Shown here piece by piece: positions 1,983-15,908 of a stretch of 64,000 nucleotides of DNA. A program made the translations under genes and the position numbers. A model generated the notes under the pieces. It did no database searches. It saw nothing but the letters and a program-made list of their open reading frames with translations, and had not been told where the DNA came from. The DNA comes from Escherichia phage pinkbiff. The stretch's first letter is position 1. Every line of letters begins with the position of its first letter. The stretch lies in sequence record MN850603.1, one strand, 5' to 3'.

Positions 1983-2243
1983 ATGAAAATTGAACACTGC
2001 TATGAGTCTGATGGAACACCTATCCGATGTCCACATTGTGGATGTACAGACTTACAAGGTGAGGTAAGTGAAATAGTCAACGGTCATATTGCTGAAGAGA
2101 GTACAAGGTGTACAGGATGTAATGAAATCATTGCTTTCTGGGCTTATGGTTTATACCAACCTACACCACACTTAATCTACCATAGCAATAAAGCTGTGAA
2201 GAATGTTATCAACTGGTTTATTAAGAAAGGGTTTACAAAATGA
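1983..2243 (+). CDS. zinc-ribbon small protein
   Basis: CPHCGC ... CTGC cysteine pairs; overlaps start of DHFR by 4 nt (ATGA coupling). Confidence 0.45.
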   Translation: MKIEHCYESDGTPIRCPHCGCTDLQGEVSEIVNGHIAEESTRCTGCNEIIAFWAYGLYQPTPHLIYHSNKAVKNVINWFIKKGFTK

Positions 2244-2785
2244 TTAAATTAATCTTTGCAAGTGGTGAAAATGGGGAGTTTGGTACTCCAACTGGTATGC
2301 CGTGGCCTCGACATAAGCAAGATATGCAAGAGTTTAAGAGACTCACTAAAAACAACTTAGTAGTTATGGGCAATGAGACTTTTAAGACTCTGGGTAGTAA
2401 GCCTTTACCTGAACGTGAAAACCTTATCTTAACAAACTCTGTACCTTATTATGGTATAGATTTTGGTAAAGAAGATGTAATGTATGCTAAGGCCAGCAAA
2501 GAGTCCTTTGGAGCATTTTTGAAGTATCTTGATAGCTCTATTGATGAAGATGTCTTTGTAATTGGTGGTGCAGGTGTTCTTGTCGATGCTTTACCATATG
2601 CTGGTGTAGTTTTCCATACAGTTTTCCATAAAGTTACTGAAGAGACCACTGTGTATTTACCTTTTGAAAACTTCTTTGATAAGCTGTATGATAACCGTGT
2701 ATTTGCAAAGGTGCAGTCGAGACCTTCAGATGATGGTAAAGCAACCTTTGAAATCTATGTTCCACAAGTAAAAGGACACTTTTGA
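2240..2785 (+). CDS. frd: dihydrofolate reductase
   Basis: 181 aa; N-terminal LIFASGENGEFG..MPW and VVMGNETF motifs typical of DHFR; directly upstream of thymidylate synthase as in T4-type phages. Confidence 0.75.
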   Translation: MIKLIFASGENGEFGTPTGMPWPRHKQDMQEFKRLTKNNLVVMGNETFKTLGSKPLPERENLILTNSVPYYGIDFGKEDVMYAKASKESFGAFLKYLDSSIDEDVFVIGGAGVLVDALPYAGVVFHTVFHKVTEETTVYLPFENFFDKLYDNRVFAKVQSRPSDDGKATFEIYVPQVKGHF

Positions 2786-2786
2786 T

Positions 2787-3686
2787 ATGTCACAAGCTGA
2801 TTTGAGTTACAAAAATATCCTGAACCATGTTTTATCCGTTGGTGAACTGCGTACTACACGAACTGGAGATGTTATCTCTGCATTTGCTCCACCAAAATTT
2901 CGTTTTGATATGCGTACTGGTTTCCCACTCTTAACATCTAAACAGGTGTTTACACGGCAAGTTATTGGGGAAGCTTTATGGTTCCTGAATGGTGAGAATA
3001 AACTTGGTGAACTCCGTTACCGTACTTGGGGTGAAAATGATGGGGAACGTTGGACTATCTGGTCAGATGATTTTAAACGCTGGTTAAGCTCTAACTATTC
3101 TTCTGAGCAAGACTGGTTAGAAGATGCAGGTGGAAGAATCTACGGGGTTCAGTGGAGAAACTTTGAAGGTCATAATGGTTGTGTTGTAGACCAGTTAGAG
3201 ACCTTAGTAACGAAGATGAAAGGTGATATCACAGACCGCTACATGCTTGTTAATGCTTGGAATGCAGCAGATATTGCAGCTAACTCAATGGCTTTAGCAC
3301 CTTGTCATGTTCTGTTTCAGATTTATATCACTAACGAGGGTGAAGTTGACTTGCAATGGTATCAGCGTTCAGTAGACACCTTTTTAGGACTTCCGTTTAA
3401 TATTGCATCTTATGGTTTTATTCTGGAAGTTCTTTGCAAGATGACTGGATATACTCCACGGTACTTGATAGGTGTCTTTGGGGATACTCAGATTTATCAG
3501 AACCATATGAAGCAGGCTTATGAACTGATGAACAATAAAGAGTTCCATGCACCCACTTTTGAGATTGGTATGCATCTTAACACCCTAAGTGACTTAAAAC
3601 ACCTTACTGCAAGTGATTTTATTGGTGGTATTAGCAACTACCAACATGCAGGAAAGATTGAAGCACCTCTGTCAGTAGGTAAGTAA
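2787..3686 (+). CDS. thyA: thymidylate synthase
   Basis: 299 aa; catalytic-cysteine region ALAPCHVLFQIY and DTQIYQNHM match the ThyA family. Confidence 0.9.
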   Translation: MSQADLSYKNILNHVLSVGELRTTRTGDVISAFAPPKFRFDMRTGFPLLTSKQVFTRQVIGEALWFLNGENKLGELRYRTWGENDGERWTIWSDDFKRWLSSNYSSEQDWLEDAGGRIYGVQWRNFEGHNGCVVDQLETLVTKMKGDITDRYMLVNAWNAADIAANSMALAPCHVLFQIYITNEGEVDLQWYQRSVDTFLGLPFNIASYGFILEVLCKMTGYTPRYLIGVFGDTQIYQNHMKQAYELMNNKEFHAPTFEIGMHLNTLSDLKHLTASDFIGGISNYQHAGKIEAPLSVGK

Positions 3687-3735
3687 AAAAAAAAAAAAAA
3701 AAAAAAGGCTCCCGTAAAAAGGAGCCTTAAATTTT
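3687..3735. terminator. bidirectional rho-independent terminator preceded by an A21 homopolymer
   Basis: A21 run 3687-3707, then hairpin GGCTCCcgtaaaaaGGAGCC, then T-rich tract; lies between convergent thyA (+) and 3734..4105 (-). Confidence 0.6.
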
Positions 3736-4105
3736 ATTTTTCAGTATTCTTTGTGTTCTTTTCAGTAATAGCTTGGAGGGCTGATACTGATTGAGCCAGA
3801 TTATTCACACTGTCAGAGAATTTATCAAGAGTTTTGGTAAGTTTTGCGTTTTCACCCTTAACGTTCTCTAACTGAACTTTCTGGTTTTCCATCCCTAGCT
3901 GAATCAGCCTCATGTCAGACTGTAAATCACGAATAGCTGAGTAATTAGATTTGCTATAATTATCTAGCTGCTGTAATTTTGTTGTGACAGACACCTCTTG
4001 CTTACCACTTGAAACTTGCATCGTGGTATACATCCCAATAACACTAAAAATACCAACAACAATTGCACCAATATTATTTTTAAAAGCTTCCTCTATCCAC
4101 TTCAT
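3734..4105 (-). CDS. membrane-anchored coiled-coil protein
   Basis: N-terminal hydrophobic segment IGAIVVGIFSVIGMYTTM followed by heptad-like Q/L/N-rich region. Confidence 0.45.
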   Translation of the reverse strand: MKWIEEAFKNNIGAIVVGIFSVIGMYTTMQVSSGKQEVSVTTKLQQLDNYSKSNYSAIRDLQSDMRLIQLGMENQKVQLENVKGENAKLTKTLDKFSDSVNNLAQSVSALQAITEKNTKNTEK

Positions 4106-4300
4106 TTATTTCTCCCCCTTAAAAGCTTTTTCTAAGTTATCTACGAATTCATCATCAATAGGCGTGTCTGTCTTACCCGCAAGGTATCTTGCAAGCTTAA
4201 AGAACACTTTCTCAATCATGTATTCACTTAGAAGGGATAAAATGAGTTTCCAGAAGAAACTACCTAGATTTTTTAGGAGAATTGCTAGGATTGTAGGCAT
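4106..4300 (-). CDS. hypothetical small protein
   Basis: ORF track; contiguous with downstream gene start. Confidence 0.35.
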   Translation of the reverse strand: MPTILAILLKNLGSFFWKLILSLLSEYMIEKVFFKLARYLAGKTDTPIDDEFVDNLEKAFKGEK

Positions 4301-4379
4301 TTAATCACCTCATCAGCCAAGATGGTGAGAATACCTATAAAGAATATTAACACCATCTTAACAATCAGTCAATAAGGGA

Positions 4380-6713
4380 TTAAGCAGTCCTCACCCAAGC
4401 CATTAACTTATAGAACTGGTTAGTAACACTAAATGCTGAACCAGAACCTGTACCACCAGTGTTACCACTAACTGTATGACTGTGAGCACCAATACCAACA
4501 CTGTGAGCATGGTTACCAGCAGAAGCGGCAGTACCACTTACAGAGTGGGTGTGAGCACCGTTAGCATCGGTGTAACCCGGCCCTGTACCAATGTAACCAC
4601 CACCACCACCGGAATAGTGCTGTGAGTTCTGACCAATCCACGAAATAGAGTGGCTGTGGTTACCAGCAGATGAAGTAGAACCACTTACAGAGTGAGTGTG
4701 AGCACCAGTCGTGTTAGTGTTTTTTGTTCCGTAGTCAAACGATGAGGTAGTCGCAGAAAAACTGTGCGTGTGTGAAGGTAAGTTACCAACAGATAACGTT
4801 ACAGAATCTGAACCACCAGTTGTAGCAACATCTGAACCATTTGCTGCTGCAATTCTAATAGTCCTACCAACACCATTATTCAGATACGTCCAAGTTAGAC
4901 CAGGCAGTGCTGTATTAGGGTTAACATTACTGTTAAACCACGTCACAATACCTACTGGATAGATTTTGTTAAGGTCTGTAGAGTCACTTACTGCCTGTGC
5001 AATCTTCTGGTCAGTCTCTGCTTTAGTGTATGCACCAATAGCTGAAGGAGTTGGCTTCTGTGCAGTTGTGTACACCATAGCCCAACTTTTCTCAAAGCCA
5101 TCACCATCTCTTGATGTCCTATACCACATACCACCATTCGCCCATTTAAATCTTAGCTGCGCAGACGGTGTAGATGACTCAGACCCCTGATATAACTGAA
5201 GTAAAAGATTTGATGATGTAGCTCCAGTCTTGACATTATACAGCCCTGTCTTAGCATCCCAAGCAATAGCAGCATCATTATCACCTTCACCAGTTTTTCC
5301 TGCATACATGTATCTGGCGTTTGATGCTGAACCGGTATAGTACCTTTTATCTAGGTTAGTCCAGTCGGATGGTTGAACCTGCCCAGTGATTGTTACATTC
5401 TTATTAAACTGGATATAGTTCTCTCTAAGAGACAGTTCAGTACCTAACACCATCTCCCTGATAGTAAAGTTTCCTGAAGCATTAGTACCCATAAACCACT
5501 TTTTAGCACCATCAGAAGTATAACCTTGCAAGAACAAACCACCAGTATCATTTACCCCTTGAAGCCTAATACCCTCTCCATCAGCCTTAATAATCTGACC
5601 TTGAGAAAAAGTATTCTTAGCATTAATTTTTGCAAGAGTGCTTAATGTTGCTGCCGGAATATATCTAGAGTCAATGTTAGTCCAATCTGAAGGTTGAACT
5701 TGACCAGTTACAGTTAGTGTTTTATTGATATTAACACTTGTCCCTACAGTAATCTTGCCACTAGTTTTGTAGTTTTCTAGAGCTACGTTATCACCTTCGT
5801 TACTATTACCAATGTACCATCTGTTGACACCTGTGCTATCAATTGCTTTAATGTACAATGGTTGTGCAGCATTGGCATTCTGTAGCCTAATTGCTTCACC
5901 ATCTTTTTTGAAAACACTCAGTTGTTTGAATGTATTAGTGCCGTTAAAAGTGTTATTACCAGCCAACTGTGCAAATCTTTGATTAGCCAATGTTTGGGTA
6001 AAGTATCTATCATCTAGGTTAGACCAGTCTGAAGGTTTAACCTGACCAGTGATATTTAAATTCTTATTAGAATTAATACCTGCTGAATCCAATGTCAATG
6101 TCGTGCCAGAGGCTTCATTTGATAATCCAAGAACATTTGAAGTATTAAATCCAACATACCATTTATTAGTTCCAGATGGGTCTTGACCTCTAACATAGAG
6201 AGAAGGGCTATCAGTTGCACTTCTTAACAACAGTGCTTGACCATCTGCTACAATTGTCTGCCTAGACTTAAAAGTATTTAGTACTTCTAATCTAGCATAT
6301 CTAGCATCATTCTCAGCATTAGTTCTCATCCCAAGTTCATTAGGGCTTGGCTTATTAAGAGTATGATAAACAGTTGCAGACCTTGAAGCATCTGCAATAG
6401 TTAGTTTAAGACCATTTGCATTAATTTTAAAAGTCTTTAAAACATCCCCCATAGTAATCTCAGAAGAGCCTGTAGGGTCAAAGACTGCCTTACCACCATA
6501 AAGTAACTTAACAATCCCTAAGTCACCCGTCATAGTGCTACCAGCAATCTGGACAAACCTTTCTAGTTTAAAAGATGCTAAGAAGTCTTGATAGGTCATT
6601 CGACGGTCTTCATCACCCAGCATTTCAGGTCTCTTTTTAACCCTGACATGGAGGAGGTCATCTGAACGAATTGTATCAATTGAGTTTAATTCACTCAACT
6701 TGTAATCTGCCAT
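4380..6713 (-). CDS. tail fibre protein (long, repeat-containing)
   Basis: 777 aa; repeated internal modules (TGQVxPSDWxNLDxRY x3); C-terminal His-rich H-x-H-S repeats and ...WVRTA end shared with adjacent fibre gene; position distal to baseplate genes. Confidence 0.7.
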
Positions 6714-6759
6714 TATAAATTTTCCTCTTAAAAGGGGCTATACAGCCCCTGTAAAGAAA

Positions 6760-7908
6760 TTAAGCTGTTCTCTGCCATACATACAATACGAAGGATGGCT
6801 GTTCAACGCTAAACGCTTGACCAGAACCAGTTGTGCCAGTTGTGCCAGAGTGCGAATGCTCACCTGCTCCGGTTACTGTTACTGTTGCTGAGTGGTTGTG
6901 GGAACCAATTGCAACAGAATGGCTGTGAGCACCAATCCCCACTGTGTGATTATGCGCACCAATTGCTACAGAGTGAGTGTGGTTGTTAGCTGTTGTCAGC
7001 GTAGCTCTTGGGTCATAGCTTGCCCCCTCAACTGATAAACCTCTCCAACCACCATCAGCATAACCACGATTAATGAATGTTGTTTGTGTTAAACCAGCAG
7101 CACTGGTTGTTCTGTTACCATAGTCATAAGTAGATACAGTCTTTGTTCCATAGTCAAACGTTGTAGTCCCTTTAGTACCGTAGTCAAAAGCACTGATAGA
7201 GGCCGTTGCACCGTGTGTGTGACCACCACCAGTGACGTATACTGAGTGAGTATGTGCAGGAATGTTGTTAACTGTCAGTGCAGTAGTCTGCGAACCAAAC
7301 GTTGAACCAACTGGCCTAGAAGCACTATCATAACCTACAAGTGCTCTTCCTTTTGAAACTAACTCCCAAGTACCTCCACAAATTAAATATGTAGAAGGGT
7401 TTGCAGGATTCATAGAGAGATGGATAGTACCTACTGGATAAGAAGCCTGAACAGCCTTGTACAAGTTATTTACTGCTCTTGCTGTAGCATACTTATCTGC
7501 ATCCTCATTATAAAGGTTAGATGTCACCCAGTTCTGAACATTGCTTAACCCAACCTGTGCCTTAGTAGTATTGTGTGGGTTGCTCTTATCATCAATATGC
7601 TGTTGAATAAGATTATTAACCTCTTCTGAAGACATAATCTGTAGATTTGCTCTTGCCTCAGCTACATTAACAATATCTGATAAGTTATTTTCAGCAACTA
7701 ACTGGAGAGCATTAATAACGTTATCTAAACCAATTTGTGTCTTAGTAACACCATGAGGGTTATTTCTTAGGCTTGAGTGTGGAGCAAGTAATTGCTCAAG
7801 AGTACATCTCTTATCCTCGATACCCTGTTTAAGATGGAAGATATCACTAAGGTCAATTGGCAAGGCTGCTTGAGGCAAGGCACTAATTTGAATTTCACCT
7901 ACTGCCAT
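6760..7908 (-). CDS. tail fibre protein (second)
   Basis: 382 aa; C-terminus with HTHS/HNHT/HSHS repeats and ...WQRTA end paralogous to the 4380..6713 C-terminus. Confidence 0.65.
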   Translation of the reverse strand: MAVGEIQISALPQAALPIDLSDIFHLKQGIEDKRCTLEQLLAPHSSLRNNPHGVTKTQIGLDNVINALQLVAENNLSDIVNVAEARANLQIMSSEEVNNLIQQHIDDKSNPHNTTKAQVGLSNVQNWVTSNLYNEDADKYATARAVNNLYKAVQASYPVGTIHLSMNPANPSTYLICGGTWELVSKGRALVGYDSASRPVGSTFGSQTTALTVNNIPAHTHSVYVTGGGHTHGATASISAFDYGTKGTTTFDYGTKTVSTYDYGNRTTSAAGLTQTTFINRGYADGGWRGLSVEGASYDPRATLTTANNHTHSVAIGAHNHTVGIGAHSHSVAIGSHNHSATVTVTGAGEHSHSGTTGTTGSGQAFSVEQPSFVLYVWQRTA

Positions 7909-7910
7909 TA

Positions 7911-15908
<7,998 letters not shown>

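Follow-up and report, generated by a model that had tools for sequence, protein, structure and literature searches.

Do the histidine-rich ends of two neighbouring genes in a 64,000-nucleotide stretch of Escherichia phage pinkbiff DNA (record MN850603.1; the whole stretch is called the window here) form metal-binding, receptor-contacting tips of tail fibres, and has such a tip been passed between the two genes by recombination? Both had been proposed in a sequence-only reading of the window, with gp37 and gp12 of phage T4 as the models. The two open reading frames (ORFs) taken there as tail-fibre genes are found on the minus strand at exactly 4380..6713 and 6760..7908, and it appears, with a probability of roughly 0.9, that they encode the long tail fibre (LTF) and the short tail fibre (STF) of a Felixounavirus, each ending in a collar, needle and head like those of T4 gp37.

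4380..6713, minus strand: LTF, 777 residues; ortholog of Bas63 gp27; PHROG 4277 (tail fibre), 1309.8 bits
6760..7908, minus strand: STF, 382 residues; ortholog of Bas63 gp26; PHROG 2097, 428 bits

Fibre identity and relation to the T4 gp37 tip

Judged by its DNA matches the phage of the window is a Felixounavirus, i.e. a Felix O1-type coliphage: the DNA is 99% identical to that of Escherichia phages vB_EcoM_Alf5, Tribble and LinBro, and nearly all of the 242 phage records that it matches belong to this genus. Identity is 100% between the STF and the fibre of Alf5, and also between the LTF and the fibre recorded for phage pinkbiff. Orthology to gp26 and gp27 of phage Bas63 (JohannRWettstein), a member of the same genus, is indicated by protein identity (98% for the STF, 67% for the LTF) together with synteny; upstream of the STF are minus-strand genes for a 100-residue protein, a 285-residue baseplate protein and a 489-residue Baseplate_J protein, and Bas63 locus tags 0023-0027 have a gene order and lengths (489, 285, 100 and 382 residues) equal to those of the window. 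The products of these Bas63 tags have been assigned as wedge 2, wedge 1, LTF platform, STF (gp26) and LTF (gp27) (PMC12609058).

The LTF contains six HxH motifs (at 648, 672, 686, 721, 735 and 744), with 13 of its 15 histidines within the last 170 residues, and the STF contains seven (219, 230, 310, 319, 328, 337 and 351), all in its last ~170 residues; STF 310, 319, 328 and 337 follow a strict period of 9 residues, or 27 nucleotides. All of the peptides quoted in the sequence-only reading were located (AHTHSVSG at LTF 671 and 720, NHSHSI at LTF 685, AHSHTV at LTF 743 and GAHNHT at STF 317), and the conserved W(V/Q)RTA end that it described is present as ...MAWVRTA in the LTF and ...YVWQRTA in the STF. 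The modules that carry these motifs, LTF 585-777 and STF 157-382, are 34% identical (BLASTP, E 1e-17). The N-terminal and central parts of the fibres do mostly differ, as had been stated, except that a short EDxRxT..L motif is common to the two N-termini (LTF 32-46, STF 28-42), a match with a z score of 3.2 that was equalled by 23 of 2000 shuffles. The EDxRxT motif is likewise described in gp52 and gp53 of Shigella phage Sf14 (PMC11821841).

A phmmer search of the PDB matched the T4 gp37 tip (2XGF) to LTF 642-756 (E 5.4e-18) and to STF 146-352 (E 3.2e-14), and among the Pfam families matched by the fibres are Phage_fiber, Gp10_C, gp37_C and gp37_trimer. In T4 gp37 the collar comprises residues 811-881 and 1010-1026 (D10), the stem 882-931 and 960-1009, and the tip 932-959, stem and tip together forming D11 (PMC6957217); these limits, with a three-way alignment of LTF, STF and gp37, set the register of the motifs. 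The HxH motifs of T4 gp37 are at 883, 915 and 929 on the ascending side and at 966, 980, 989 and 998 on the descending side. Those of the LTF align one-for-one with six of the seven, only T4 998/1000 being without a counterpart, and their spacing (24/14 ascending, 14/9 descending) compares with 32/14 and 14/9/9 in T4. Five STF motifs align with T4 883, 966, 980, 989 and 998 and none with 915 or 929; the STF motifs at 230 (proximal) and 351 (descending side) occupy positions that are not homologous to T4 motifs, and extra (F/Y)DYG(T/N)(K/R) repeats stand in place of the two distal ascending HxH. HxH motifs are thus found on both the ascending and the descending strands at T4-homologous positions. 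The resulting map of the two modules is as follows.

4773..4961, minus strand: LTF 585-647, gp10_C-like collar; aligns with the T4 gp37 collar; 99% conserved in the family
4650..4772, minus strand: LTF 648-688, ascending needle stem; HxH 648, 672 and 686 plus FDYGTK; aligns with T4 H883/885, H915/917 and H929/931
4554..4649, minus strand: LTF 689-720, hypervariable head (tip), predicted receptor-contacting hairpin; aligns with T4 gp37 tip 932-959
4470..4553, minus strand: LTF 721-748, descending needle stem; HxH 721, 735 and 744; aligns with T4 H966/968, H980/982 and H989/991
4383..4469, minus strand: LTF 749-777, C-terminal segment ending AWVRTA; 98-100% conserved; predicted to return to the collar
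7255..7482, minus strand: STF 143-218, gp10_C-like collar; Pfam PF21939, 65.2 bits against a 27-bit cut-off
7129..7254, minus strand: STF 219-260, ascending stem; HxH 219 and 230; (F/Y)DYG(T/N)(K/R) copies at 241 and 251
6982..7128, minus strand: STF 261-309, hypervariable head (tip); opens with a third repeat copy, YDYGNR, at 261-266
6844..6981, minus strand: STF 310-355, descending stem; HxH 310, 319, 328, 337 and 351
6763..6843, minus strand: STF 356-382, C-terminal segment ending VWQRTA; placed by alignment and conservation

The fibres share with T4 gp37 the order collar, FDYGTK, HxH, head, HxH and C-terminus, and the loop between the HxH motifs that flank the head is 32 residues long in the LTF and 34 in T4. 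The C-terminal segment of the LTF aligns with the T4 gp37 C-terminus, with R and A invariant, and the STF collar also matches T4 gp10 (PDB 2fkk, E 7e-6). However, identity over the whole module is only 42% for the LTF and 32% for the STF, and the collars of LTF and STF homologs, taken by themselves, agree with that of T4 at 13-15 of 71 positions. The STF further differs in its three (F/Y)DYG repeats and in its HxH, of which two are ascending and proximal and five descending; each fibre here is a single polypeptide, unlike the four-protein assembly of T4, and the literature on this phage group points to a receptor that is presumably the lipopolysaccharide (LPS) core only, not OmpC. The alignment with T4 tips that had been suggested succeeds for gp37 only. 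As regards gp12, no chain of this protein was among the PDB matches at E<=1 for either the LTF or the STF, and what is held in common is a gp10-type collar. T4 gp12 is a trimeric fibre with a C-terminal receptor-binding domain that combines a collar of the gp10/gp11/gp12 fold with histidine-coordinated zinc; it has no repeated HxH needle, and the gp12 analogy holds only for the fold family of the collar.

The region is rich in glycine, serine, threonine and histidine, the STF shows a 27-nucleotide tandem period, and confidence in the monomer models is low there, so that the repeats could be taken as mere compositional low complexity with no specific structural role. This is extremely improbable. 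The observed HxH counts were reached by none of 20000 whole-protein residue shuffles for the LTF and none of 20000 for the STF; shuffles inside the histidine-rich segments reached them in 7 of 20000 cases (LTF) and 0 of 20000 (STF). In family alignments of 67 and 93 sequences, where columns average only 24-27% identity, the histidines are the best-conserved residues (mean 0.74-0.78 vs 0.46-0.47 for other residues): STF H219/221 and H337/339 and LTF H672/674, H735 and H744/746 are identical in every row, and LTF H737 in 99%. It is this family-wide conservation that sets the motifs apart from low complexity and, with the shuffles, rules out that the repeats are only compositional, one half of the condition on which the sequence-only reading was to be abandoned. 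Both fibres also match, with high significance, the solved needle of T4 gp37, which binds iron and in which an alanine at either H929 or H931 gives no plaques (PMC6957217).

The genes, the motif register, the homology to 2XGF, the conservation pattern and the mosaicism described below are shown by the sequences; trimer formation, metal binding, reversal of the chain and the identity of the receptor we infer from homology to T4 and from the published Bas63 models. Each fibre would presumably be a homotrimer. From a gp10-like collar a strand with HxH and FDYGTK would ascend to a small hypervariable head, the predicted point of contact with the receptor, which for this phage group is likely the LPS core; a descending strand with HxH every 9-14 residues would then lead to the W(V/Q)RTA segment, which would return to pack against the collar. 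Within the trimer each HxH may supply two histidines per chain to an axial metal site of octahedral geometry, occupied by Fe2+ in T4, and such sites would pin together the six-stranded needle on which the head is presented. Felixounaviruses are described in the literature as LPS binders.

Several observations weigh against so direct a transfer from T4. The STF is without the two distal ascending HxH of T4, which most STF homologs also have; because these are missing, its needle cannot be merely a copy of that of T4, and its distal half must be built differently. Nine HxH are found in 46 of 52 STFs (the window STF plus 51 homolog cluster representatives), whereas the window and Bas63 type of STF has seven. 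The LTF collar scores 23.5 bits against Pfam Gp10_C, under the 27-bit cut-off, although LTF homologs do carry PF21939. Finally, no gp38- or Tfa-type chaperone gene was found beside the fibres, the ORFs at 4106-4300 and 3734-4105 matching only PHROGs of unknown function, and there was no Tfa or gp38 Pfam match at the fibre locus, the rest of the window not having been screened for a gp57A-like gene. Folding of T4 gp37 requires gp38 and gp57A; an adjacent chaperone gene is a trait of the T4 system and not of the fold.

A further HxH occurs elsewhere in the window, in the baseplate central spike protein (10961-11584, minus strand; 207 residues, with the N-terminal domain of Pfam PF18352), which ends ...NEHTHHYYW. 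Its H188/H190 is a candidate for a third HxH metal site in the window, and the same di-histidine, putatively iron-binding motif has been reported for the Bas63 spike (PMC12609058).

Conserved scaffold, variable head, and known relatives

The C-terminal module common to the two fibres had been taken to be the receptor-binding tip. Conservation profiles built from 51 STF and 119 LTF homologs correct this, in that the conserved part common to both is scaffold and the tip would be the hypervariable hairpin at LTF 689-720 and STF ~261-309. Conservation is high in the collar, in both stems with their HxH and in the W(V/Q)RTA end, with values of 0.9-1.0 in the LTF, where H735-H746 are conserved at 99-100%. 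LTF 689-720 falls to 0.30-0.63, the lowest of the C-terminal module, and STF 261-310 to 0.13-0.38; the LTF head exists in 55 distinct variants among 120 LTFs. The hypervariable segment sits between the ascending and descending HxH runs, which is the site of T4 tip subdomain 932-959. Because of this layout, and because the C-terminus would belong to the collar, the receptor-binding part is placed at the hairpin between the HxH clusters and not at the C-terminus. The scaffold is thus shared by the two fibres of the window and the tips are not, since the best local alignment of the two heads gives only 6 of 19 identical residues.

Structure prediction, which had been suggested for the trimeric C-terminal regions, was informative mainly at the collar. 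Monomer models had a mean pLDDT (predicted local distance difference test score) of 64 and 68 and were poor outside the collar, for which values of 83-93 (STF) and ~90 (LTF) were obtained; STF 272-307 was under 50. In fold searches these poor models gave weak matches, with the T4 gp10 C-terminal domain at the top, and 2XGF was not among them.

The tip architecture is already known, being published for the close relative Bas63 and covered by existing Pfam families. Cryo-electron microscopy and AlphaFold models of Bas63 display a collar, needle and head on both fibres, with seven HxH in the STF and six in the LTF (PMC12609058), and LTF beta-helix repeats were reported as well, tips and repeats being variable in sequence (Sci Adv 2025, PMC12609058). 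The fibres of the window have equal HxH counts (7 and 6), an STF head that is 100% identical to that of Bas63, and an LTF that is ~90% identical in the C-terminal module vs 67% overall. They differ by a few residues in the LTF head, where Bas63 has HHxH and the window NHSH, and strongly in the LTF rod repeats, a region in which the DNA of the window is 39-73% identical to that of relatives.

Phage Sf14 belongs to another genus (Mooglevirus, Ounavirinae); the window STF is 66% identical to its fibre, and both fibres of each phage carry the EDxRxT motif. Sf14 has two retracted fibres of ~430 and 630 Å, the shorter with a gp10-C-like domain (PMC11821841), but in that paper the gp10-like/C24-like domain was placed mid-fibre and no HxH needle was described. 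More distant counterparts are found in hundreds of enterobacterial prophage fibres that are 45-60% identical to the LTF module and in side tail fibres of the P2, Mu and lambda type, which combine PF03335 (Phage_fiber) with PF21939 or PF07484 collars; the fibres of lambda (Stf), peduoviruses and 9g match STF 242-343. Unlike the fibres of the window, these prophage and P2/Mu/lambda-type proteins have other N-terminal attachment domains, and many have a Tfa-type chaperone (PF03406) fused or adjacent.

For the window alone the result is of little import, since it correctly re-annotates two gene families that are already well known. Its practical value is in the residue map that separates a scaffold of collar, HxH stem and C-terminus from an exchangeable head (LTF 689-720, STF ~261-309), which is useful for host-range engineering of Felix O1-type phages in the biocontrol of Salmonella and E. 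coli.

Exchange of head cassettes

Has a tip been exchanged by recombination, as the likeness of the two fibre ends had suggested? Between the two genes of the window, which are 34% identical in protein and 50-63% in DNA, no such exchange is visible; across the family, mosaics and shared cassettes argue for it. The module common to the two fibres might be a recent duplication or gene conversion, with tips actively exchanged in this phage, since the genes are same-strand neighbours with motifs in common, and since in Felix O1 and NBSal004 a 65-codon cassette is indeed common to the STF and LTF of each genome. This is nevertheless very unlikely for the window. DNA identity of the two modules is 50-63% in every segment, the longest shared tracts being 22 nucleotides at 91% and 49 nucleotides at 76%; the heads are unrelated; the LTF module is nearer to prophage fibres of Erwinia, Serratia, Providencia and Photorhabdus (45-60%) than to the neighbouring STF; and E. 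coli phages have each of the window's heads only a single time in a genome. Recent intragenomic exchange in the window was consequently rejected on the low protein and DNA identity and the unrelated heads.

Across the family the picture is different. The DNA of the window compared with four relatives is a mosaic with abrupt switches, blocks of 95-100% identity lying beside blocks of 40-70%. In DE7 the low-identity blocks are the two head-coding segments, and in Andreotti and C600M2 the STF is 98-99% identical and the LTF 68%. The same head is found on LTFs and on an STF of different phages (TVGGRYGGDSIGGKQRVQVSGT, 29 of 30 residues identical) whose collars agree at only 22-23 of 64 positions. 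The most direct case is presented by Felix O1 and NBSal004.

1217-2383 of Felix O1 (L006): STF gene with the shared cassette
2434-4782 of Felix O1 (L006): LTF gene with the shared cassette
3676-4842 of NBSal004 (L007): STF gene with the shared cassette
4893-7238 of NBSal004 (L007): LTF gene with the shared cassette

In each of these genomes the STF and LTF share a cassette of 65 codons comprising the distal needle and the head, with 91-92% amino acid and 84-89% DNA identity, whereas the STF and LTF collars have 39-40% and 48-50%, respectively. Identical residues in Felix O1 use the identical codon at a frequency of 0.77 inside the cassette vs 0.61 outside, which supports a common ancestry of the cassette; as a point on the other side, this codon identity is only modestly higher inside, and any exchange in Felix O1 is for that reason not recent.

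Cassettes have apparently moved over larger distances as well. The Felixounavirus LTFs P0216 and P0146 and the STF P0026 carry a cassette of the T4 gp37 type, identical to T4 at 22-24 of 28 tip positions and at 35-39 of 50 in the ascending stem. The T4-like part corresponds approximately to gp37 residues 898-993, with junctions at FDYGTK and ...GIGAHxHTV, and the collar agrees at only 13-15 of 71 positions. Such cassettes imply probable exchange between T-even phages and Felixounaviruses, and these heads possibly confer a specificity of the OmpC/LPS type. The head TVGGRYGGDS..., which Felix O1 and NBSal004 carry on both fibres, was found at 145 places in 86 records, and it is also present in the T-even-like phage Lv5cm and in the 29-kilobase phage STYP1. 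Taken together, the sequence comparisons make a well supported case that, in the wider family, cassettes have passed from one type of fibre scaffold (LTF or STF) to the other and have been exchanged with further phage families.

The comparison of relatives with different hosts, which had been put forward as a check, bears out that heads track the host. Records with the TVGGRY head are Salmonella phages in 80 of 86 cases, and the heads of the window are found in Escherichia phage records in 34 of 36 (LTF head) and 41 of 43 (STF head) cases. That the window fibres carry different heads suggests two receptor specificities. A broader proposal, which we hold to be somewhat better than an even bet, is that a portable needle-plus-head cassette of ~65-95 residues, bracketed by FDYGTK and GxHxH, moves between the fibre positions of a virion, one head being common to STF and LTF in Felix O1 and most Salmonella Felixounaviruses, and also between unrelated phage families. 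E. coli K-12-type Felixounaviruses such as that of the window would on this view have diversified to two heads with dual specificity, and the Salmonella ones would present one head on 12 fibres. Such a portable, host-split head cassette is a modest extension of the known modularity of tail fibres. The dichotomy of same and different heads was not found in the literature searched, and it may be known to specialists. The sharing of cassettes throughout the family suggests natural graft points for host-range engineering.

The positions of the cassette junctions bring in another reading of the motifs, in which HxH/GxHxH and FDYGTK matter mainly as patches of DNA homology ("His boxes") for swapping and metal binding is secondary or absent. 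The junctions in P0216, Felix O1 and others do lie at FDYGTK and at a second conserved segment, and 50-nucleotide direct repeats with 88% identity stand on both sides of the segment that codes for the LTF head. A His-box recombination model for T-even adhesins was reportedly advanced by Tetart, Desplats and Krisch in J Mol Biol in 1998, a paper of which the title appears in reference lists; a literature search on "His box" recombination found no paper. As the main significance of the motifs this is highly improbable, since what is conserved between very distant proteins is the amino acid sequence, identical residues share their codon at a frequency of just 0.53-0.77, and the same histidines bind iron and are essential in T4. 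A role at the DNA level is compatible with the metal role, and is best seen as an added consequence.

The direct repeats of the window lie at 4510-4559 and 4657-4706 and code for the GAHTHSVSG...SAGNH segments that border the LTF head. By way of these repeats the head could be deleted, duplicated or swapped.

Rod domains of the long fibre and neighbouring genes

Upstream of the collar the LTF has features that are additional to the tip.

6294..6713, minus strand: LTF 1-140, N-terminal baseplate-binding region; 92-100% conserved in 119 homologs
5340..6353, minus strand: LTF 121-458, three rod repeats R1-R3 of ~107-114 residues, each closed by a TGQVxPSDWxN(L/I)DxRY linker
6003-6050, 5661-5708 and 5340-5387, minus strand: linkers of R1, R2 and R3, by motif position
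4977..5306, minus strand: LTF 470-579, gp37_C-type domain; Pfam PF12604, E 1.4e-16

The assignment of the first region agrees with the Bas63 LTF, of which the N-terminal domain binds the baseplate (PMC12609058). The three internal copies of a linker motif that had been noted in the longer fibre are confirmed at residues 222, 336 and 443, and their consensus is refined to the form given above, with L or I after the asparagine. The rod repeats are ~40% identical pairwise (z 28-33) and are also seen in the DNA as the 82-nucleotide repeat family D1. Three stretches match Pfam gp37_trimer (PF20744), a family of repeated ~95-residue units, at 171.9 bits against a gathering cut-off of 21.7. Among the 119 homologs the TGQVxPSDW linkers are conserved and the bodies of the repeats are variable. 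LTF 470-571 matches the phage Mu tail fibre protein S (PDB 8ju3, E 9.6e-20), and the LTF would accordingly be built as the tip described above preceded by three gp37_trimer-type rod repeats and a Mu S-like domain.

The genes next to the fibres include one that adjoins the STF on its upstream side.

7911..8213, minus strand: predicted LTF-platform protein (Bas63 gp25, T4 gp9-like), 100 residues; assigned by position and synteny; PHROG 4141, function unknown

On the other side, 3' of the LTF, are two small minus-strand ORFs of 64 residues (4106-4300) and 123 residues (3734-4105). The product of the former is hydrophobic; that of the latter is hydrophobic at its N-terminus, has a tail resembling a coiled coil, and is called "holin" in the annotation of relatives. 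Neither product is similar to a tail-fibre chaperone. The annotated length of the ORF for the 64-residue protein varies among relatives from 117 to 198 nucleotides. Dihydrofolate reductase and thymidylate synthase genes (2240-3686, plus strand; thymidylate synthase 2787-3686) adjoin the fibre genes convergently, an arrangement kept in all relatives inspected. Between the thymidylate synthase gene and the end of the fibre operon at 3734 is a strong bidirectional hairpin terminator (3705-3728) with a stem of 8-9 base pairs and a T-run, the only element that stood out in a scan of the fibre locus for promoters and terminators.

Felixounavirus fibres were also met with under implausible labels in the databases, namely Methanobrevibacter gottschalkii, Pseudomonas aeruginosa and Staphylococcus phage SA1 (proteins P0154 and P0252 and record GU169904). 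These records are probably assembly contamination or chimeras.

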